A DNA stretch of 63,964 nucleotides, the filler included, from Stramenopiles sp. TOSAG23-3 (lineage: Eukaryota): NCBI GenBank assembly GCA_900128585.1. It is 4 parts of 4 records of this genome, joined end to end, with 100 filler letters (N's around TTAATTAATTAA, not from the genome) between each part and the next. Parts side by side here need not be neighbours in the genome. Positions count along the whole stretch, not along the records: positions 1 to 29,746 come from LT642233.1; 3 more parts are not named here. The stretch is one strand, 5' to 3'. Under the pieces are notes generated by a model. That model saw nothing but the letters and a program-made list of their open reading frames with translations. It had not been told where the DNA came from and searched no databases. The position numbers and the translations under genes were made by a program. Every line of letters begins with the position of its first letter. Positions within the stretch are counted from its first letter, which is position 1. Positions 1 to 53,539 of the stretch are shown here, piece after piece.

Positions 1-1924
1 AGCTGCCAAGTGCCACCATTATTGGGCCGTGCTCGACTATAATTTCTTCGAGATGTACGGCAGAAGATGACGGCACGTCCGTGCCACGTTTGCGTTCCTT
101 GCTAACACTGGATAATGCATTTATCGTTTGGTGCACTGCCTCGATTGCACTGTGCTGTGGTGTTTGCATTTTTGAGATGCGGGGAGGTATGTTTCCAAGC
201 AGTGTATTTGCACAAGCCAGCCCTGACGTGCAAGTGCGTTCCACATCCTCTCCCCCCTCCATCATGACCACCAACCTTCCCCCCGCAAGGCCCAACAGTG
301 GGTAAAGTAGGTGAGCAAAGCCTTCTGGGGTAATTCCAGCTTTTCCTTCAGGCGAGTCAAAGCCTCCACAAACAACTATCAAATCTGGATTGTATGCCCG
401 AGCGGCAGGGATCAATAAATTGTCCCATGCGTACAAATACTCCGCATTACCCATATCACAGTTAGACCATTCTACGTTCATGTTAAATCCGATCCCCTTC
501 CCCTCGCCAATGTTGTTGAAACTGCCTGGGTCTTCCGCACCTTTGGGGTCCCCTTTCAAATGGATCGAAAAATATAGGACCGAGGGGTCGTCAAGAAATA
601 TGCTCTGGGTTCCCTTTCCATGATTGTTGCCCCAATCAACGATCAAAACTTTCTTTACGTCCGGTTCATTTTCAATTGCAGACTTAACGGCAACAGCGAC
701 TGAATTAAAAAAGTGTGAACCAGGTGTAAACTTTGGTCCCGACTGATGGCCTGGGGGGTCCACAACTACAATTCCACAGTTACACTCACCGACGACAACC
801 TTGTTCAGGAGATCAATCGCCCCTCCTACACTAAGCATTGATGTCGCAAAAGTGTCCTGCTTTGTGTGCTTCAAAGAACCAAGATATCTATCGTTCGTGC
901 CCTCTTCTTTTGTTTCAAACCTGTCAGTGATTTTTTCGACCTGCTCTTTGCTGTGAACCAAAAGGACTTCGTCCAACGTTGCTGCCCGGGCGGGCACCTT
1001 CGCGAGGCGGTCAAAAAGTCCAGCAGTCTCGAAGGCGGTGGCGATAGAGATAAGGGGTGGTGAACCATCCCTGCCTTCCAGACCGGTATGGAGGCTCATC
1101 CGCTCGTCCAAGACTATGCCAACAACTCTACGATCCCCCGAAGCTTTAAATTTTTCCTGAAATATGTTCGACGCGGATTCCGCCGCCTCCATGGCTTTCA
1201 AATCTCGCTGGTAGTGACCCAGTGCCATCTTCTGCTCTTGAGATCCTGTTGGATCGGCCGACTCCCTTAGACTGGATTCTAAATTCCGAATTTTTGTCTT
1301 GGTTTTTTGAAAGCGAAGCATCCACGAGTAATTGTTGTTACTGTTTAGCTGTAAGAATCTGAAGTTTGTTCCTGCGCTACTGGACGTGGTTTGCTCGACC
1401 ACCTCTTCCCCTTCTCCAACTTGTAATTTTGGGAAATGGTGGTTTTCTGTTACAATTCTAATGCCTAGCGTCAGCAATGTCAAACTCGTCTCGTAAAATT
1501 GAAGCAAATGCCGCATATCTGGCATCTTGAAGTGCAATACCAAAGACGGGTCTGTTCCTCCTTTCAAGAGCGCTCCCTTCAAAAAATTAGTGTTGTCTCT
1601 GTCTAGGGGGAAAAATGTAAGCAAGTGATCGACCCTCTCGGAGTGTGCGACTGCCACGCCACGACTGCGAAAGTCTTCTCCTTTCTCAAAAATTTGGGCA
1701 CGGCAACCGTAAATTTTTGCGGCAACAATCGGTATTCTAATGTCTATTGAATCTCCGATACAGATTAAGCAGTCTCCGCTTTTAAATCGAACATTTTCCA
1801 AAAGAAATTCCGGATTATCGCTGCACGTTTCAGTCGCACTTTTATAGCGTATTTTCAACAGTAGGCTGTAAGCTTGAGCAGCTGCCAACCTTTCAGCTGT
1901 ATACTTGTCGGCTGGGGCCTGCAT
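1..1924 (-). CDS. Degenerate class I SAM-methyltransferase-like domain fused to a catalytically degenerate class II histone deacetylase domain (3'-partial, runs off the window)
   Basis: Manual translation from ATG at 1924 gives 641 stop-free codons to the window edge; it is absent from the ORF track because no stop is reached. HDAC-like motifs: GIVLDERMSLH, ARAATLDEVLLVHS, DPPGHQS, GSHFFNSVAVA, KVLIVDWGNNHGKGTQ, DDPSVLYFSIH, GEGKGIGFNMNV, YNPDLIVVCGGFDS, LAGGRLVVMMEGGE. The N-terminal CLICIGDSIDIRIPIVAAKIYGCRA...GIRIVTENHHF resembles the DLGxGDGRIxIxAAKxYG...GxRIVS methyltransferase pattern. Confidence 0.85.
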   Translation of the reverse strand, partial: MQAPADKYTAERLAAAQAYSLLLKIRYKSATETCSDNPEFLLENVRFKSGDCLICIGDSIDIRIPIVAAKIYGCRAQIFEKGEDFRSRGVAVAHSERVDHLLTFFPLDRDNTNFLKGALLKGGTDPSLVLHFKMPDMRHLLQFYETSLTLLTLGIRIVTENHHFPKLQVGEGEEVVEQTTSSSAGTNFRFLQLNSNNNYSWMLRFQKTKTKIRNLESSLRESADPTGSQEQKMALGHYQRDLKAMEAAESASNIFQEKFKASGDRRVVGIVLDERMSLHTGLEGRDGSPPLISIATAFETAGLFDRLAKVPARAATLDEVLLVHSKEQVEKITDRFETKEEGTNDRYLGSLKHTKQDTFATSMLSVGGAIDLLNKVVVGECNCGIVVVDPPGHQSGPKFTPGSHFFNSVAVAVKSAIENEPDVKKVLIVDWGNNHGKGTQSIFLDDPSVLYFSIHLKGDPKGAEDPGSFNNIGEGKGIGFNMNVEWSNCDMGNAEYLYAWDNLLIPAARAYNPDLIVVCGGFDSPEGKAGITPEGFAHLLYPLLGLAGGRLVVMMEGGEDVERTCTSGLACANTLLGNIPPRISKMQTPQHSAIEAVHQTINALSSVSKERKRGTDVPSSSAVHLEEIIVEHGPIMVALGS

Positions 1925-2756
1925 TTTTTTACTGCACTCCTTGGAGTTACAGAAATGTCCTTGTATAAACACGTCCCAACTGAAGGTGTATTTGTGCCAA
2001 AGTGACTGCTCAACCTTGAAGAAATATGTCCTGCTTCGGGAAGGCGGAGGCAGCCAGAGGAAAGTTAAGGTACCGGTACCTGTACAGTATCCGTTCAATG
2101 TTTCTTGCAAAACAGATTCTACTTTTTGTTGGTCGTCGGTAGTAGAAAAAAAATAAAGAAGAAGATAATAATAAAATAAGAAGAAGAAGCTTAAAATAAG
2201 ATATAGATGCTGCAGCGATATATTAGTGTCTATATAATACCAAGTACCGACAGATACGGGAACGAAGTTCAGGAGTTATTATTGTTGAGGTGTGACTACA
2301 ACAACTGGCAGACACGGGTGTGCCGGTTCGAACTACTTGAATACGGTGGTCGTGGAAACCATTTGGAAAATATTGGTAGTAATTGAAGACGACGTGCCAC
2401 ATCACCATGCTGCAGCTGTTTGTTGCGGTCTTGAGTCTTGAGGCGTTCCATTGACTTCTCATGCTGCTGCTGCTGCCAATCTCAAATCTGAATTTCGTCA
2501 GCCTTGTTGTTGTAGTTTTATTTTGATCTAGTGAATATTATTTAGACCTTGGTAATAATTATTTCACGATGAATTAACAATTTTTCAACGGTTTCAACGC
2601 AATGCTTTGAATACAATTTTTCCTTAACAATATTAATTGCACAAAAGCTCTTCAATACGTTCAAAATACTTGAAGTTCTTCACAGTGTGTTCTCCCGAAC
2701 AAGTCAAATTCATCGTTTTGAGAGCAATAGTTTCGACCTGTAAGAAGTCACCGCCC

Positions 2757-4731
2757 ATGAAGGTTCAAAAAAACCCGCTTCAGGTGTCGAAGCCGAAAAA
2801 GTTGCCTAGGGCTTCCAGTGCAACAAGTTTTAAAAAGCAGGTCTCGATAACGATGCGAAAAGTGAGCGCCCGGTCGTCTGAAAGCAGTAATGACGCTAAG
2901 GGTCAAATTACGTTTCGCCGTGTAGTTGGGATTAAGGAGATTTTGATACTGGTAGTCGCGCTTACAATTAGTGCGCTGCATACGGTTATCATCGTTTTAT
3001 CTTCCATATATAGTCCGAATTTTTATCGGAGGTGGTGGTACGCGGCCTTTTTCATTGTTTCAGCAATTGCCTACTTTGCCCTGGTGGTGTATTTTTTAAT
3101 CCGTTGGAAAGTTATTGCCGAATGGTGGATACGAAAACAGCTATTACTGGCAGGAAAATCAAAAAATAGAAATTCGGTGATTCCGACAAAATCTTTTTTC
3201 GCTGAAAAGTCTGCCCTTGATCAAATCGTTTGTTAATGAGCTGATGGAGGACTACTGGCAATTGTACGCTCTCGTGACCGTGCACTTGTGTACGCTTCCA
3301 ATTGAAATTACGACCGTATTTTTCTTCATCCTTGTGGGAGAAACTGCGTACAGGTTTTATATGAATTCCAAGGCGCTGTTTCCCAGTGGCAACAAGCACA
3401 TCACGGTTCACGAGAGGGACACGCAAGTCACCGTAGACATGTTTGTCGACGTTTTTTTCTTAATAGTCCCCCTTGCAATGTATCGTTTCGTCGTGTTCGT
3501 GGATCTGCCTGTACAAGATTTGTTTTTGCTGACGTTTATGCCAACCGTTACTGTCTTCACTAAAATAAAAGAATTGATCGAAGATGCCATCTGCATTAAT
3601 GCCGAAACCTTAATTGCAGAACACCAAGAAGCGCTCTCCGAGAGACGGTCTCGGCGTAGACAAAGCTTGTTTGGGAATCTGTCCTTCAACGAAGCAGTTG
3701 CTGTTAACCAAAACAGGTACTTTCCGAAGAAAGCCAAAATTGCCGTGGCGTTGCTCTCGTTATTTTACTGTTTGTTTACAATGACGCTAGCAATATTTCA
3801 ACTGGCTTCTTCTGGTGCAATGACTAAAGCTTGTAATTCCGAACAAACCGAGCTTATTTGGAAGAATTGCCAAGTGAAAGTATTCTTTTGTCGATCCTTT
3901 TTTGAACCATCGTGCAACTGCGCCGTGCTGGATGTGAAGAAGCACAACATTACAGAATTACCAGATAAGTTTACGGGTTTAAATGCATTGCGAAAGATGA
4001 CGTTTCGTGATGGACCGTTGGAGAGCTTGCCAGAGGGGATGAAGGGGTTTACATCAATTAGTGAATTGAATGTTGCGTTTACAAATTTGCAAGCCTTTGA
4101 TGTAGATATCAGTGGCTGGGAAAAATTAATAATGTTCCGCTTGCGGTACAACAAAATGAATCGCCTGCACCCTTCCGTTTGGGTTCATAAAGGACTGATT
4201 AATTTAGTGCTGAATGATAATGTTGGCCTGAATTTTCCGAGTGACCCCGCGGCAGTGTACCTGCCGTCGTTGAGTCTCATTACACTACAGAACAATAGTG
4301 TCATAATCCCCAAATCGTTAAACAGTGAACAACTGCCTTTGCTGAGATGGCTTTATGTCAACGGGAATACCATAGCTTCCCCCGCGTTTCTGCTACAGAA
4401 TAATAAACGTTTGACTATGGTAGGCGTTTCGAGATGCAATTTGACTAACTTGCCGTTTTCGGAAACGGGGGCTTCGCAACTGCAGTATTTGGATGCACGG
4501 GACAACAACATTACGCACATTAGCAAATCTTTAGAAAATGTAGTTGCAGCAGGTGGGGACGATAACTTTTTCTTCGCTAGAAACCCGGTGTGCAAGTCAA
4601 ATGAGGCTTTAAACTGTAAACCTTCATGTTCCAAATACTGTTGGGGAAAGAAGCATGCGGCCTTTAATAAAGTATGTGACCCAGGATGTAATACACAAAA
4701 GTGCGAGTATGATTGGGGTGATTGTGTTTAG
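2757..4731 (+). CDS. Multi-pass membrane protein with leucine-rich repeats and a C-terminal LNR(Notch)-like module; split by an apparent frameshift near 3181-3236
   Basis: ORF 2637-3236 (first ATG 2757) has two TM helices. The overlapping +1-frame ORF 3217-4731 (TTG start) continues with TM helices, a CNCAVL cap, LRRs (LPDKFTGLNALRKM, LQYLDARDNNI) and CDPGCNTQKCEYDWGDC. Confidence 0.7.
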
Positions 4732-26287: not shown

Positions 26288-27748
26288 TTACATATTTCTT
26301 AGAGATATTTTTCCGCTGTTTAGGCCCTCTAATAGTACATCAGACCCACCGATATATTCGCTCTTCATCCATATACTTGGAACGGTTTTACTCCCTGTTT
26401 TCTGGTACAAACGTTTCAGGATGTTTTCCCCATCCTTACGGGTATCCAATTCCACTATCTGCACTTTGACGAATCCGTTCTCAATCAATGCACGTTTTGC
26501 TTTCTTGCAAAACCCGCAATAAGTTTTGCTGAACATAACTATTTTGTGCTCTTTGACAAACGAATCAATATCAATTTCTTCACTCCCAGGTTCTTTTTTA
26601 GGCTCGTCCTTTTGTTTCTTTCGAGCAGCAGTATCCTCAGGGACTTCAGCTTTACTGCCTTCATCCAAGGGCACGAGGCTCAGGGCTCTCAAAATCCTCT
26701 CAAACTTTTCAAAGTTATCTACAAAGCCATCATTTGCATTGGCCTTCTTGGAATGAATAAGGTTTAAAAGGCCGGAATTTCGATTCTTTACGAACACATC
26801 AAAGTTTCCTGTCGTCTTCACTTCTTGCAAAAGTCCAACTCTTACACCCACCTTTCCCTTCAAAAGGTTTCCCAAATGCTCCGCCCTAGCTCCGTACCCG
26901 CACGAGCCACAATACACTACCAGCACGTCGTTTTCTTTTTCCATTTTTTTGCGATTTGCAGCAAACTTTGCCTCGGACGCTTTCTGCTTTGCTAGCAAAA
27001 GTTCCGCCCGTTGCTCCGTCCAGTACTCTTGTCCGTTCTTCGCCCTTATACTTCCATCGTAAATACGCCAAAACGCCTGCGGCAATCGTGGCTGATGGAA
27101 CTCTCTGTGGAAGGGCGCAGGGAGAGACCAACTTGAATACACAGGGAGCTGCAATCCTGTAGGCTCTGCGCTGCAATACTGCCTTGCCTTCGGTTTTGCC
27201 AAATACTGCTGGTGGTACAGCTCCGCGTAATAAAAAGTCTTTTGCACCGCTATTTCTGTCGTAATTTCACCCATGCCGCCAGCTTTCAGTATTGCCCCAT
27301 ATGCCTGTTTGCTGGCTTTTGCAAGCACCATGTGTTCTGGGTCTTCGGTGTATATTGCACTTCGGTACTGAGACCCAACGTCACCGCCCTGTCTCATTCC
27401 CTGGGTGGGATCGTGGCACTCCCAAAATCGTTTCAATAAATCAGAGACAGACACTAAATTTGGGTCGAATACGACCTGGGTGACTTCCGTGTGGTTCGTT
27501 AGGCCGCTACAAACTTGCTTATAAGTTGGAACGTCCGTATCTCCCCCACAGTACCCAACAGCAGTGCTAAAAACACCAGGCAAACGCCAAAAACCTTTTT
27601 CAGTTCCCCAAAAGCATCCTGCACCAAACCATATTTTTTTAAGGTTGTCCGGAAACGGTTCTCTAAAGTTATTGTTTTTCAGAACGTAGTGTTTCTTTCC
27701 TTTCGCAGCTTGGTCAAGAAAACTGGTAGCCGAACCCATAGAGGACAT
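26288..27748 (-). CDS. msrA: Methionine-S-sulfoxide reductase MsrA fused to an Rdx (SelW/SelT/SelH-like) domain and a glutaredoxin
   Basis: MsrA: FGAGCFWGTE, HDPTQGMRQGGDVGSQYRSAIY, FYYAELYHQQYLAK. Rdx-like: VVYCGSCGYG...TTGNFDVFV...LIHSKK...GFVD. Grx: FSKTYCGFCKKAK...TGSKTVPSIW...IGGSD. Confidence 0.92.
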   Translation of the reverse strand: MSSMGSATSFLDQAAKGKKHYVLKNNNFREPFPDNLKKIWFGAGCFWGTEKGFWRLPGVFSTAVGYCGGDTDVPTYKQVCSGLTNHTEVTQVVFDPNLVSVSDLLKRFWECHDPTQGMRQGGDVGSQYRSAIYTEDPEHMVLAKASKQAYGAILKAGGMGEITTEIAVQKTFYYAELYHQQYLAKPKARQYCSAEPTGLQLPVYSSWSLPAPFHREFHQPRLPQAFWRIYDGSIRAKNGQEYWTEQRAELLLAKQKASEAKFAANRKKMEKENDVLVVYCGSCGYGARAEHLGNLLKGKVGVRVGLLQEVKTTGNFDVFVKNRNSGLLNLIHSKKANANDGFVDNFEKFERILRALSLVPLDEGSKAEVPEDTAARKKQKDEPKKEPGSEEIDIDSFVKEHKIVMFSKTYCGFCKKAKRALIENGFVKVQIVELDTRKDGENILKRLYQKTGSKTVPSIWMKSEYIGGSDVLLEGLNSGKISLRNM

Positions 27749-49523: not shown

Positions 49524-52274
49524 TCAATACAGTATTCTCCTGCACTTGTCCGCCCCACAAAAGCAAGGGTGCGACTTTCCGTGAACTTGGCCCTTCGTGT
49601 ACCCATAATCCCACGTTAATTCTGACCCCGCTTTGATGTCCGTTGAAGCAAAGAATGCTAGCCTTGGGGCACGTACGTCGTGGCTGTCAACGTAGACGGA
49701 CTGCTTCTCAAGGTTCGGCTCGCAGCAGTGGTTGATAAAGCGTGCGACACCACCGTACCATTTGGCGTCAATGCAAAGCATGTCAGCGTCATCGTTCACA
49801 TCAATATCTTCAACAGCGATTTCACCAAGCTTCTTCTGGAACATTTTTCGCCAGAGTTGTGCCCCGGCTTGTTGCAGTGGCCCCCGGCGATGCAAAGGCC
49901 CCCCTTGAGGCTGCGACGCGGCTGGCGTCGAGTCTGGAGACGCTTTCGCGCTAATCTTCTCGTCGGAAGCTGCAGCTTGCTTTTTCTTCGATTCAATCTC
50001 TGCCATTAGCAAGCACCACACCGTGTCCAGGCTGAGCAAATACTCGTCCCCCATTTCCGGGCTGGCCCTTCGCTCCGCTTCCTGTTCCGAAATGATCTCG
50101 CCGACGTACTCGCATACAAAAGTTCCTGCTGGTATGTCGACAAGCGTTCGAACGCCCCAACCACAAAGCTTGGTCTTGAAAACTTCCAAAGGAAGCTGTA
50201 TGCCCCGGCCAACGACCCTGTTCTTGCACCGGCTCTTGTGGCATTTGCAACGAGAATTGCACTCGTATATAACATCACGCTGGCGAAGCAATTGGCGCCG
50301 CCGGTTGTACGCGAAGCTTCCATCGTTTGCTTTGGCGCACGCGCATTTCTCCGGGTCCCGGCAATCGTCTTCGCAATCACAGCAGCTGACAAGGTTGTCC
50401 GGGTGGTCATTGATGACAATATGGCTTTCCCCGAGCACGGACTCTTTCACGTAGTGGAACACGGGCGGGGGCTCTTTCTTCCGAAACGAGTTGCGGCAGG
50501 CTATGGGCCGGGCCTCACGACCGTTGGAGATATCAGCACACACTATGCCGTCCTTCAGTTGTTTTTTTGTGACAGGGTGGTAGAATTTTTTCCATTCCTC
50601 ACTCGGCGACGAGCTTTTGCTGTTTTCTTTTGCGCTCTTCAACATCTTTAGCACGGCGCTCGCACATCGTTGGAGCGGTTCGAGCGGGGACGGGTCGCAC
50701 AAGTAGCACGACCAGTCTTCGGCATTGCTCACGTCCGTGACCGTCTGGGCGCCGAAATTCCTATGAATGCAGTTGGTGCAAAAGACCTTTGGGCAATGGT
50801 CGCAGCCCATGATCTGCCCCCCGTCCCCACACCACCGACAGTACATTTCCACACCATCGTCAACATCGAAGCTTCCTTCGTTGTACACGTGGCGGCATTT
50901 GTTACAAAATATTACCTGAAGCTGTGGGTGGACGTGGATTTGGTTCTTTCTCTTCAGTATATCCCCGCACGACGTGCAGTGTACAATTGTCGTGGGCCAC
51001 TCGTCAGGGACCTCTTCGCTATGCTTTTCAAAAGTTTCCATCCACTGCGGTTTCTGGTAATTTACACGGCACCCAAGGCCCATGGTCCATGGCTCCATCA
51101 ACCGAAAGTTGTACGGGCGCTCTCGGGTAAAGATAGAGGTGAACTGCTTCGGGGGGGGCTCTTCGCTGTCCCGGTTGGACAGATTATTATGTACATCGGT
51201 ACCCCCCTGACTGGTCCCGGCGCGCATGGACTTCTTTTTTTGGCGCCTTTTTACTTCTTTCTTAAGCTCGAACTTTAACCACCCTCCCTTTATACTTTTG
51301 TGGCCCTCGCTTAGCAGGTGTCCTTTTAAGCCCGTGCGCGGCCCGAACGTTATCACAACTGGCACCCGAGTCTCCATGGTTGGTTCTTCTTCTGGGTAAA
51401 TGTGGCACAATAAGTCTGCAAAAAAGTCCAGGCGATCGCTACATCTCGTGCTTTCGCACAAATAGTCCACTACACATTTTATTTCATCCATGCTCCCTAT
51501 GTCCTTCGGGGGAATTGATTCCTCTTCTGCTACTACTACGTCGGTGGGCCCGGGTTTCCCGCCGCACGAAACAACCGCAGCTTTCGTTTTGATCCTTTTG
51601 CTGCGACGGGCGACGGGAGGTTCGGAGGAGGACTTGCTGGACGACCCGACGATCCCATCTTGGTCAGCCCCACCAGCTGCCGGCTTGCTATATGACAACG
51701 TTTTTCGGAGGAACACGTTGGTGTCCAACGTGCACCACTGGCGTAAAACGGCAGCGTCTACTCCCACAAACGCTGAAAACTTAGCAAAAACTGGCGGCAA
51801 ACTCCTGATTCCAAAGACACCTTTGATTATACTTTTGAATTTGAAAAATGTTGGAATGTTCATTCTAACGCGTGCTTTCAGCAGGTCGCACTTGCGGTCT
51901 ATCCTGAACTGCTCTCTATCTGCGCGGTACCCTAGCACGCTTCCTATGAACGACGAACACTTTGCCTTGCCGTACTCTTCAATGAGTGTTTTTCGAAGCG
52001 CGCCGCAGAACGCGTACGGTTCGCTGGGCAAGTTGTCTTCCTCCTCTTCGCTCGAATCGGAAGATTCGGACGATTCTTCGTCAGATGATGACGTTTCGCT
52101 GTCCTTCTCCTCTGCATCATCCCCGTCACGGTGTCGCTGTTGTCCCGCTCCTATCTCCACCGAGGGTGTTTCTTCCTGAGCCATCTTGTCATCCGCCAGG
52201 CACTTTGCGCTTTCGTCTTTGCTCACGACATCAATTTTCTCGTCTTGGCCCCGTTTTCGTTTCTTAAGCGTCAT
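49524..52274 (-). CDS. ADD-domain + pre-SET/SET/post-SET histone lysine methyltransferase (SUV39/G9a/SETDB1-type, likely H3K9)
   Basis: ADD: HCTSCG...HPQLQVIFCNKC...DGVEMYCRWCGDGGQIMGCDHCPKVFCTNCIHRNFG...WSCYLCDP. Pre-SET: DISNGRE...CCDCEDDC...IYECNSRCKC...CKNRV. SET: GWGVR, FVCEYVGE, ARFINHCCEPN, ELTWDYGY. Post-SET: CFCGADKCR. Confidence 0.93.
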   Translation of the reverse strand: MTLKKRKRGQDEKIDVVSKDESAKCLADDKMAQEETPSVEIGAGQQRHRDGDDAEEKDSETSSSDEESSESSDSSEEEEDNLPSEPYAFCGALRKTLIEEYGKAKCSSFIGSVLGYRADREQFRIDRKCDLLKARVRMNIPTFFKFKSIIKGVFGIRSLPPVFAKFSAFVGVDAAVLRQWCTLDTNVFLRKTLSYSKPAAGGADQDGIVGSSSKSSSEPPVARRSKRIKTKAAVVSCGGKPGPTDVVVAEEESIPPKDIGSMDEIKCVVDYLCESTRCSDRLDFFADLLCHIYPEEEPTMETRVPVVITFGPRTGLKGHLLSEGHKSIKGGWLKFELKKEVKRRQKKKSMRAGTSQGGTDVHNNLSNRDSEEPPPKQFTSIFTRERPYNFRLMEPWTMGLGCRVNYQKPQWMETFEKHSEEVPDEWPTTIVHCTSCGDILKRKNQIHVHPQLQVIFCNKCRHVYNEGSFDVDDGVEMYCRWCGDGGQIMGCDHCPKVFCTNCIHRNFGAQTVTDVSNAEDWSCYLCDPSPLEPLQRCASAVLKMLKSAKENSKSSSPSEEWKKFYHPVTKKQLKDGIVCADISNGREARPIACRNSFRKKEPPPVFHYVKESVLGESHIVINDHPDNLVSCCDCEDDCRDPEKCACAKANDGSFAYNRRRQLLRQRDVIYECNSRCKCHKSRCKNRVVGRGIQLPLEVFKTKLCGWGVRTLVDIPAGTFVCEYVGEIISEQEAERRASPEMGDEYLLSLDTVWCLLMAEIESKKKQAAASDEKISAKASPDSTPAASQPQGGPLHRRGPLQQAGAQLWRKMFQKKLGEIAVEDIDVNDDADMLCIDAKWYGGVARFINHCCEPNLEKQSVYVDSHDVRAPRLAFFASTDIKAGSELTWDYGYTKGQVHGKSHPCFCGADKCRRILY

Positions 52275-53539
52275 TTTCACTGAAACACCGCGACGCGAAA
52301 TCAGAAATCAGCGGGTAGAACGAAGGCCCAACCCCAAGACGTTAAAAACGCAAAGCCTTCGTATATCGAACTCGTAAAAATAATAAAACGGTTGGACGAC
52401 TTTACTACTTTTCAATTGAATCGTTCTTTGAAGCGGAATGGATTCACTTTGAATAGAAATAGAAATAGATAGAATATAAATAAAAACATTACCACTTTTG
52501 ATTTGGTTTTTTAATTTTAGAGGATCTCTTGTGTCATATTCTGTATATCAATACCGGTGGTGGATGATGGATATAATAACATATAGAGATGGTGTTTTTT
52601 TATTATTATTATTATTTTGATTGATGATGATGTGTGATTCTACTTTTACTTCTCTTTCTTCTTTCTTCTTTCTTCGTTCGATTTTATTTAAAAAAAAATA
52701 ATAATAAAAAAATATTTTTTTATTAGATTTGTTGTGATTGACACTTTTGTTGGAGGAAATGAGTCATTATTAAGGTAAATAATAATTGATAATATAATGT
52801 AAATAATAATAGTATTTTTTATACACTAGGTATATTATATAATAATAATATTTTAGTTTTTATTAATACTATAAAGATATATATACCTTAACATCGACTA
52901 AGTGCAGCTATTAATAAGTCTTCAAAGACCACCAAAATAAAAAAGACGAAATAAAGAAGAAGTTGAATGATGAATAATAAATACTACGAGGTACGAACTA
53001 ACTAAAAATAAAAAGAGAGAAAGAGAGAAGAAGAAGAGAGAAGAAGAGAAAAAGACGACACTCATTTTATAAGATGACAGATATTATAGATCGAATAGAC
53101 ACTAATTAATATAATAGCAATGATAATAATAATTCTTTTCTTCTTTTCTTCTTTTCTTCTTTTTATATAGAAATATTATAGAGAGCTTTCTTCTTCAATA
53201 TAATCCACATGTGGATAATAGATAGACGACTATTATTAAAATAATAAATAAATATATTATTATTATTATAATTAATAAAAAATGGAGAGAAGAGGATAAA
53301 TAAAATAATAATAATAAATAAATAGGAAGAAGAAGAGGACGTGGTTTTCATTTTGTTGTGCTTTAATGAACCAATTGATTGTTATGCATTTCTAACCGTC
53401 CCTCCTTGTTCATTTGAAGAATTTAACGCAAAGAAAGAGACAGGTAAATATAGCTATATATCTTAATCTAAACCTGGAGGTCCCTGTGTTCGTATAGTCG
53501 TGCCCGTATACAGCCGTGCCCTTAGTAAACGGTATCATC

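Follow-up and report, generated by a model that had tools for sequence, protein, structure and literature searches.

A gene at one edge of a 63,964-nucleotide stretch of DNA from Stramenopiles sp. TOSAG23-3 (assembly GCA_900128585.1; the whole stretch is called the window below) encodes a 673-residue protein, P0002, in which a full-size class II histone deacetylase (HDAC) domain without key active-site residues follows a degenerate class I S-adenosylmethionine (SAM) methyltransferase domain of the aKMT/FAM173 kind. The homologies, the intact frame, the existence of relatives with an intact deacetylase site and the selectivity of the loss are read from the sequence; with moderate confidence, we take P0002 for a maintained, non-catalytic, self-dimerising pseudo-deacetylase scaffold that would present two methyltransferase-fold modules.

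2..1924, minus strand: codons 1 to 641 of the 673-residue, intronless gene (translation; full-length protein; loci L010 and L011)

Translation from 1924 to 2 confirms the stop-free minus-strand frame of at least 641 codons reported in an earlier note on this DNA. The gene runs off base 1 of its contig, which leaves its last 32 codons outside; two other loci, L010 and L011, carry it entire, including the stop, and supply the C-terminus that the note had proposed to recover by extending the contig. The open end is probably why the gene was missing from the track of open reading frames (ORFs), and the ORF listing recovers the frame once open ends are permitted. Upstream, the stop-to-stop frame reaches 2275; because L010 has a stop within this extension and L011 a shorter version of it, and because relatives start at the same Met, 1924 is likely to be the start codon and a longer N-terminus was rejected.

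Sequencing or assembly error as the source of the substitutions described below was also rejected, the same motifs recurring in other assemblies. The P0002 cluster has 13 members (from NCBI, ENA, JGI and EukProt), of which 8 cover all four HDAC motifs and 1 more covers EGGE; none of the 11 members compared with P0002 deviates at any motif, and there are no stops or frameshifts in the 13 cluster proteins, in L010 or in L011. Contigs from RNA libraries of three studies match window positions 111-282, 234-571, 591-759 and 769-1083 at 0-1 mismatches. These are pieces of the HDAC half, the N-terminal half being uncovered and uninformative; they hint weakly at transcription, since such contigs give neither strand nor level and the runs were selected via this stretch. 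Codon usage carries no information here: an off-frame control reached an equally high score.

The deacetylase domain and its losses

113..1132, minus strand: class II deacetylase domain, apparently a pseudo-enzyme (aa 265-604; Pfam PF00850, PDB matches, pLDDT 82 in the dimer model)
740..760, minus strand: DPPGHQS (aa 389-395), with R389D and H394Q (general acid/base lost) and H393 kept (translation, alignment)
713..721, minus strand: GSH (aa 402-404) replacing GFC, with the tunnel Phe lost (F403S) and a new His404 (C404H) (translation, alignment)
611..637, minus strand: DWGNNHGKG, in which two Zn ligands (D432G, H434N) and the residue that partners the lost His in the relay (N437K) are replaced and D430 is kept (alignment)
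353..367, minus strand: GGFDS, with the third Zn ligand D523 kept and the next loop four residues shorter (alignment)
248..259, minus strand: EGGE (aa 556-559), the catalytic Tyr replaced by Glu559 (Y559E) (translation, alignment)

The class II scaffold that the earlier note had recognised is borne out by a Pfam Hist_deacetyl (PF00850) score of 161.9 bits, against a cut-off of 27.9, and by the best PDB matches over aa ~265-605: HDAC6, Clr3, Hda1 and HDAC10 (5edu, 5td7, 5ikk, 6z6f). The domain aligns to class II over ~335 residues with only short deletions. It is the single HDAC stretch in the part of the protein encoded in the window, where Pfam detects no further domain, and the full protein adds only 32 residues.

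All the substitutions listed in that note (CIGDSID, DPPGHQS, GSH, DWGNNHG, EGGE) are present and recur in other assemblies. Active enzymes are defined by a double His, GFC, an Asp-His-Asp Zn triad and the Tyr of (E/S/G)GGY (PMC11532494). In P0002 the double-His motif is incomplete (H393 present, H394Q), and so is the Zn triad: within DWGNNHG (aa 430-436) D432G and H434N leave only D523. Also lost or shortened are N437 and the E-x-P-x-R, G-x-F-Y-P and A-x-G-D-P-L loops, the four residues before the G-D-P-L position being gone. H434N alone would not be disabling, because some active Legionella deacylases have Asn at the Zn-His position (PMC11532494). What P0002 retains is H393, D430 (relay partner of H393 and K+ ligand), S453 and D523, and the fates of the relay residues are paired: the H393-D430 pair is still there, and neither H394 nor its partner N437 remains (roles from PMC11532494). 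The HDAC half appears to be a pseudo-enzyme, although its lack of activity is something we infer. The earlier note had also offered an acetyl-lysine reader; reading through the canonical tunnel is unlikely because the residues that line it have been lost as well (F403, the Phe of G-x-F-Y-P, the G-D-P-L loop, Tyr559 and the Zn site).

Is this merely what any decaying deacetylase would look like? Across 179 class II domains, 77 HDAC columns reach a conservation of at least 80%; the relatives described below keep 74 of these and P0002 keeps 53. Of the 19 columns that belong to the active site or the tunnel P0002 has lost 13, and of the remaining 58 it has lost 11 (Fisher p 1.2e-4, or 2.4e-4 when, more strictly, each deletion is counted once). 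Changes away from the site are mostly conservative, with a mean BLOSUM62 score of +0.5 for 11 of them and -1.4 for 8 active-site substitutions. Uniform decay to the observed level predicts ~43 stops and none is present. By these counts, the HDAC loss is selective rather than uniform or neutral decay. The earlier note had named, as an outcome that would count against it, orthologues with intact residues and neutral decay only here: the relatives are indeed intact, but the decay is selective.

The methyltransferase-like domain and the fusion family

1430..1804, minus strand: degenerate class I SAM-methyltransferase domain, aKMT/FAM173-like (aa 41-165; hhalign, PDB 3evz)
1742..1762, minus strand: degenerate motif I, CIGDSID (aa 55-61; alignment to relatives and aKMT-like proteins)
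1685..1687, minus strand: Glu80, aligned with the Post-I acidic residue and invariant in 3 of 3 clusters (alignment)
1601..1603, minus strand: Asp108, aligned with the conserved Asp after strand 3 and kept in 3 of 3 clusters (alignment)
1844..1897, minus strand: N-terminal helix common to relatives (aa 10-27; 12 of 18 residues identical to P0281 or P0300; helix in the model)
1133..1429, minus strand: poorly conserved linker (aa 166-264; 19 of 99 residues identical)

P0002 has relatives of the same architecture. An exhaustive search of 1.84 billion representatives gave 8067 matches, the best 150 of which were listed; among the 280 proteins then compared, only the P0002 cluster and P0142 bear the N domain. 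P0281 (661 aa), a full-length member of P0142, and P0300 (645 aa, a cluster of 17 members) are the same fusion with intact HDAC motifs (RPPGHHA, GFC, DWDVHHG, GFD and EGGY). Their HDAC domains are 92% identical to each other and each 47-48% identical to that of P0002; judged on sequence identity, the two are effectively one intact lineage. Their N domains are 42-48% identical to that of P0002, so that this domain and the HDAC domain have diverged to a similar extent between the dead and the intact lineage. The three proteins form one clade (100/98), in which the P0002 branch is three to four times longer (1.72 vs ~0.47 and 1.25 vs ~0.41 in two trees). A further protein, P0299, has the N domain followed by unrelated sequence, probably from a frameshifted assembly, and was left out of all HDAC counts. 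As sampled, the death of the HDAC domain appears to be a loss in one lineage, the family architecture being a degenerate methyltransferase plus a deacetylase; the "double pseudo-enzyme" of the earlier note thus fits P0002 as far as its HDAC half, dead by sequence, but not the family, in which two other clusters keep an intact HDAC site.

An origin of P0002 as a recent duplicate of an HDAC in its own genome was rejected: sisterhood with each of three intact class II HDACs fails the AU test (p 0.027, 0.0006 and 0.004). The genome has 14 PF00850 matches; of the 13 others, 10 have canonical motifs and 3 are fragments or gave no motif call. No second or intact copy of the fusion family was found in this assembly, which may be incomplete. 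One intact class II paralogue, L002 (1426-2505, plus strand), loses similarity soon after EGGY, with no continuation in other frames, and may be truncated or mis-assembled. Elsewhere, 136 stretches in a scan of metagenomes led to 4 loci, of which 3 belong to this species and 1 is of the P0300 type; viral contigs, phages and plasmids yielded no relative, one plasmid match having E 3. A word-index search with P0002 aa 1-265 returned only itself among 3041 candidates, a weak negative given that it missed the 42-48% relatives. The fusion family, whose architecture the earlier note did not recognise, is apparently undescribed and narrowly distributed: in literature coverage that largely leaves out subscription journals, and within the accessible portions of the papers, neither a fusion of a deacetylase with an aKMT- or DOT1-like domain nor a class II HDAC that is fully dead and stands alone was found, and the portions available of PMC3145265, PMC10211241 and bioRxiv 10.1101/2021.11.30.470311 mention no such fusion.

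Standard domain scans do not recognise the N domain: Pfam and NCBIfam give no methyltransferase match. Its identity comes from profiles. A profile of the three N domains has a single match in the PDB, the methyltransferase 3evz (E 0.017). Comparison by hhalign with 85 aKMT-like proteins, a set built after the likeness was recognised, gives 94.6% (E 6.7e-8; score 52 vs at most 19 in 60 column shuffles); across the five families covered, size-matched aKMT-like subsets give 85-90%, PrmA 0.4%, Methyltransf_31 0.5%, PCMT 0.4% and FkbM 31%. In the reverse direction, the N domains and four methyltransferases from the same genome rank above everything else among 523 sequences searched with the hidden Markov model (HMM), and for each of the 3 N domains 0 of 2000 shuffles attain the HMM score. 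By profile, then, the earlier note's N-terminal methyltransferase homologue with a degenerate motif I holds: the domain is of class I SAM-methyltransferase descent, nearest aKMT/FAM173 among the five families tested. On the structural side, a single-sequence AlphaFold model of the N part has a pLDDT of only 35, and a three-sequence model (pLDDT 58) has five alternating core strands plus helices; with the latter, the Foldseek search that the earlier note had proposed found nothing significant (best E 0.049), and a fold search peaked at Z 6.0 with an enolase-family chain, with 0 class I methyltransferases among 50 rows. Matches in the ESM Atlas, all methyltransferase-like or unnamed, score at most 0.89 and serve as leads only. 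The last two strands of the fold may lie in the linker near aa 187-205, where a hairpin appears only in the pLDDT-35 model.

Does the domain still bind SAM? Motif I reads SLGMKGD and SVGTKGD in the relatives and DLGSGDG in aKMT-like proteins; in all three clusters the Asp is replaced and the G-x-G spacing broken, and P0002 has also lost the second Gly. Because motif I is degenerate in all three clusters, its degeneration would predate the HDAC loss. Kept across all three, although the relatives are only 42-48% identical to P0002 here, are G57, D61, E80 and D108; the position of Asp108 is presumably the one that contacts adenine in methyltransferases, and we assume that the Asp replaced in motif I is equivalent to one mutated in FAM173B. 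That FAM173B mutant is inactive (PMC5828452). Loss of SAM binding is likely on this alignment, and some residual binding of SAM or its product SAH possibly persists; the dead methyltransferase of the earlier note is therefore upheld for motif I, and only as a likelihood for SAM binding, Glu80 and Asp108 being retained. Like aKMT and FAM173A-B (ANT-KMT and ATPSc-KMT; PDB 5fa8, 5jwj, 5bxy; PMC9006661, PMC5828452), the domain has profile homology over strands 1-5 and shares the Post-I Glu and the Asp after strand 3; it differs in a motif I degenerate in all three fusion clusters and in its fusion to a deacetylase. The same genome also encodes a canonical aKMT-like methyltransferase with DLGSGDG (L018 1195-1890, minus strand; best PDB matches 5bxy, 5fa8 and 5jwj), a natural positive control for the degenerate domain.

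A predicted dimer and the possible roles of the protein

386..454, minus strand: predicted interface helix aa 491-513 ("alphaF", boundaries by our assignment; dimer model)
275..334, minus strand: predicted interface helix aa 531-550 ("alphaG", boundaries by our assignment; dimer model)
167..196, minus strand: predicted interface loop aa 577-586 (dimer model)
2..112, minus strand: first part of the little-conserved tail; it contains a basic patch, KERKR (aa 609-613), as a possible nuclear signal (alignment)

Both the fold and the homodimer are predictions. Two copies of aa 262-610 give a homodimer score of 0.73, against 0.01 for the best of 3 controls, in runs that share at least 88% of contacts with a pLDDT of at least 81; the mark used is reached by 17 of 29 eukaryotic solved pairs, by only 1 of 7 that lack an earlier solved relative, and by none of 30 single chains. 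The predicted interface comprises residues 497-514, 538-550 and 577-586. In HDAC10, HDAC6 and Clr3 the pairing face is made of alphaF, alphaG and loop LH (PMC5454378), and the interface modelled here, with elements assigned by us, appears to coincide with it.

P0002 is like HDAC6, HDAC10, Clr3 and Hda1 in its core, in the Asp and Ser of the K+ site and in a predicted back-to-back dimer face, and unlike them in joining a single HDAC domain to an N-terminal methyltransferase-like domain and in lacking the general acid, one Zn Asp, the tunnel Phe residues and the catalytic Tyr. In class IIa HDACs the Tyr has become His, with the Zn site and the His pair kept. P0002 resembles these "pseudodeacetylases" (HDAC4/5/7/9; PMC12747566, PMC11532494) in the replaced Tyr and, presumably, in a non-catalytic role, but has Glu in place of the Tyr and has lost the entire site together with the tunnel. 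The C-terminal pseudo-domain of HDAC10 also has a deacetylase fold but neither functional Zn ligands nor functional catalytic residues, diverges fast and pairs through alphaF/alphaG/LH, as is predicted for P0002 (PMC5454378). It is fused to an active domain, whereas the P0002 chain has no active deacetylase domain; it lacks loops L1-L5 and helices alphaA and alphaB2-B3, whereas the P0002 domain is full-size (PMC5454378); and, unlike it, P0002 has close relatives with an intact site.

The scaffold role that the earlier note proposed is also the reading that we prefer. In an ancestor, an aKMT/FAM173-like domain with an already degenerate motif I would have been fused to a class II Zn-dependent lysine deacetylase; in the lineage of P0002, the Zn site, the general acid, the catalytic Tyr and the substrate tunnel of the deacetylase would then have disappeared, while its core, K+-site ligands and dimer face stayed. 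Two such domains would pair back to back, like the tandem domains of HDAC6 and HDAC10, and the dimer would present two methyltransferase-fold modules to a protein client, possibly with residual SAM or SAH binding; the scaffold role and any client we infer. The link to chromatin suggested by the earlier note finds a sole possible hint in the short basic patch at aa 609-613. HDAC6 and HDAC10 act largely outside chromatin. FAM173A/B are mitochondrial, and aKMT has broad specificity (PMC9006661).

Several points weigh against this account. The sampling amounts to a single dead lineage and a single intact one. Since intact PPGHH and D-x-D-x-H guided the choice of the 179 reference domains, those columns are conserved by construction, and the 19/58 split was drawn by structural role after viewing the alignment. 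Because the interface matches a face of structures already solved, the dimer score may be a memory of HDAC6, HDAC10 and Clr3. Interface residues are identical to the relatives at 15-16 of 26 positions against 134-137 of 314 elsewhere, which is not significant (p 0.22 and 0.07); an excess of identity at the level of helices (42 of 69 vs 117 of 271, p 0.01) is gone without the active-site loops (p 0.14). Within the species, P0002 and L011 differ by 7 nonsynonymous and 4 synonymous changes (p 0.22 vs neutrality), and L010 and L011 by 8 and 5 (p 0.15), while a neighbouring HECT gene has 0 nonsynonymous and 0-1 synonymous changes in the same comparison; these small numbers give no sign of present purifying selection. 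At the divergence between the dead and the intact lineage, synonymous sites are probably saturated.

If the domain pairs, need its partner be a second copy of itself? Acting like the HDAC10 pseudo-domain in trans, it could bind an active class II HDAC through the same face as a prozyme-type partner, stabilising, targeting or inhibiting it. Candidate enzymes are at hand, with canonical motifs in 10 of the 13 other PF00850 matches of the genome; the predicted face is the one used by pairs of active and dead domains (PMC5454378), and the TbPRMT1 enzyme and prozyme offer a precedent (PMC10211241). However, the P0002 interface is identical to those of the own-genome intact class II paralogues L002, L003 and L004 at only 8, 12 and 9 of 26 positions, about the mean of 9.5 of 26 over 179 unrelated class II domains, and an intact copy of the same family was not found in the genome, which may be incomplete. 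We regard such a partnership as doubtful.

Another reading would leave the N domain alive. Despite its unusual motif I, it would be a SAM-dependent lysine methyltransferase that in the relatives modifies lysines freed by the deacetylase, the dead HDAC domain here serving only in dimerisation and targeting. The conservation of G57, D61, E80 and D108 between clusters only 42-48% identical is consistent with this, as are the similar degrees of conservation of the N and HDAC domains when dead and intact lineages are compared, and the nearness of the N domain, of five families, to aKMT-like lysine methyltransferases (85-95% vs at most 31%); the separate proteins LphD, a deacetylase, and RomA, a methyltransferase, share one lysine (PMC11532494). 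What makes the proposal unlikely is the state of motif I, with its Asp replaced and G-x-G spacing broken in all three clusters and the second Gly lost in P0002, together with the lack of any Pfam or NCBIfam methyltransferase match; on the equivalence assumed above, the inactive FAM173B mutant (PMC5828452) also speaks against it. A bolder version, to which we give equally little credence, would make the whole family a single-chain lysine acetyl-to-methyl switch: the deacetylase of the intact relatives would free a lysine, the aKMT-like domain, holding SAM via Glu80 and Asp108, would methylate it, and the HDAC half of P0002 would now act as dimer scaffold, or as a new metal site, for a methyltransferase that is still active.

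The gene might also be redundant and drifting under relaxed selection towards a pseudogene, its active site gone first and a disabling mutation not yet fixed. The long P0002 branch, nonsynonymous polymorphism that does not fall under the neutral expectation, the presence of several other intact HDACs and the fragmentary RNA support would all suit such a course. Against it, 673 codons have stayed open through more than 1 substitution per site, the pattern of loss is selective, the loop deletions are in frame, and the 13 cluster proteins, L010 and L011 contain 0 stops or frameshifts; we think this improbable as well. Least probable of all is a repurposed site, in which H393, the new H404, N434, D523 and the new E559 would bind a different metal or ligand and support a new hydrolase or binding activity on a substrate other than acetyl-lysine: polar or acidic residues have come in near the site (R389D, C404H, Y559E), D523 and H393 are retained and active Legionella deacylases tolerate Asn at the Zn-His position (PMC11532494), but D432 has become Gly, the general acid is gone and conservation of the new residues is not seen in any second sequence.

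Neighbouring genes and the meaning of the fusion

Window positions 1-29746 are one contig of a 28.4 Mb assembly (7088 contigs), the remainder being other sequence joined by runs of N; a search of the assembly for an 18S gene had no match, and the labelled sequencing runs that contain the stretch are marine or aquatic. The adjoining genes are long, uninterrupted eukaryotic genes, e.g., for a HECT ligase, PACRG and a ceramidase. Upstream of the fusion gene, the non-coding sequence at 2348-2349 carries a 31-base insertion in run X19, with several small indels further upstream, and 2637-4731 (plus strand) encodes a membrane protein with leucine-rich repeats and an LNR domain. The latter differs from three other copies by 11 nonsynonymous and 4 synonymous (11N/4S), 22N/4S and 17N/6S changes over 495 codons, partly clustered in the repeats; because these are mostly nonsynonymous, they suggest diversifying selection. 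In the window copy, the frame is split near 3218 by a 50-base deletion that L010 and L012 do not have. Past the contig end, the downstream neighbour (L010 10408-12021, plus strand) has a long N-terminal region of an unrecognised kind and ends in an intact-looking class I methyltransferase domain, which we take to resemble the cap hypermethylase TGS1. Elsewhere in the window, 26288-27748 (minus strand) encodes methionine sulfoxide reductase A, an Rdx-family domain and glutaredoxin in one protein, and 49524-52280 (minus strand) a Pre-SET/SET methyltransferase with an ATRX/DNMT3-type ADD domain.

The reach of the finding is narrow, covering two lineages of uncultured marine protists, and neither an activity nor a link to chromatin is claimed. 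Pseudo-deacetylases described so far are of two sorts, dead domains joined to a live partner, as in HDAC10, and enzymes weakened by a single substitution, as in class IIa; here, a full-size domain has lost the whole site. Intact and dead fusions at ~47% identity are a natural live-versus-dead pair, which makes testable (i) what purpose an HDAC fold serves without catalysis; and (ii) in what order its active site was dismantled.

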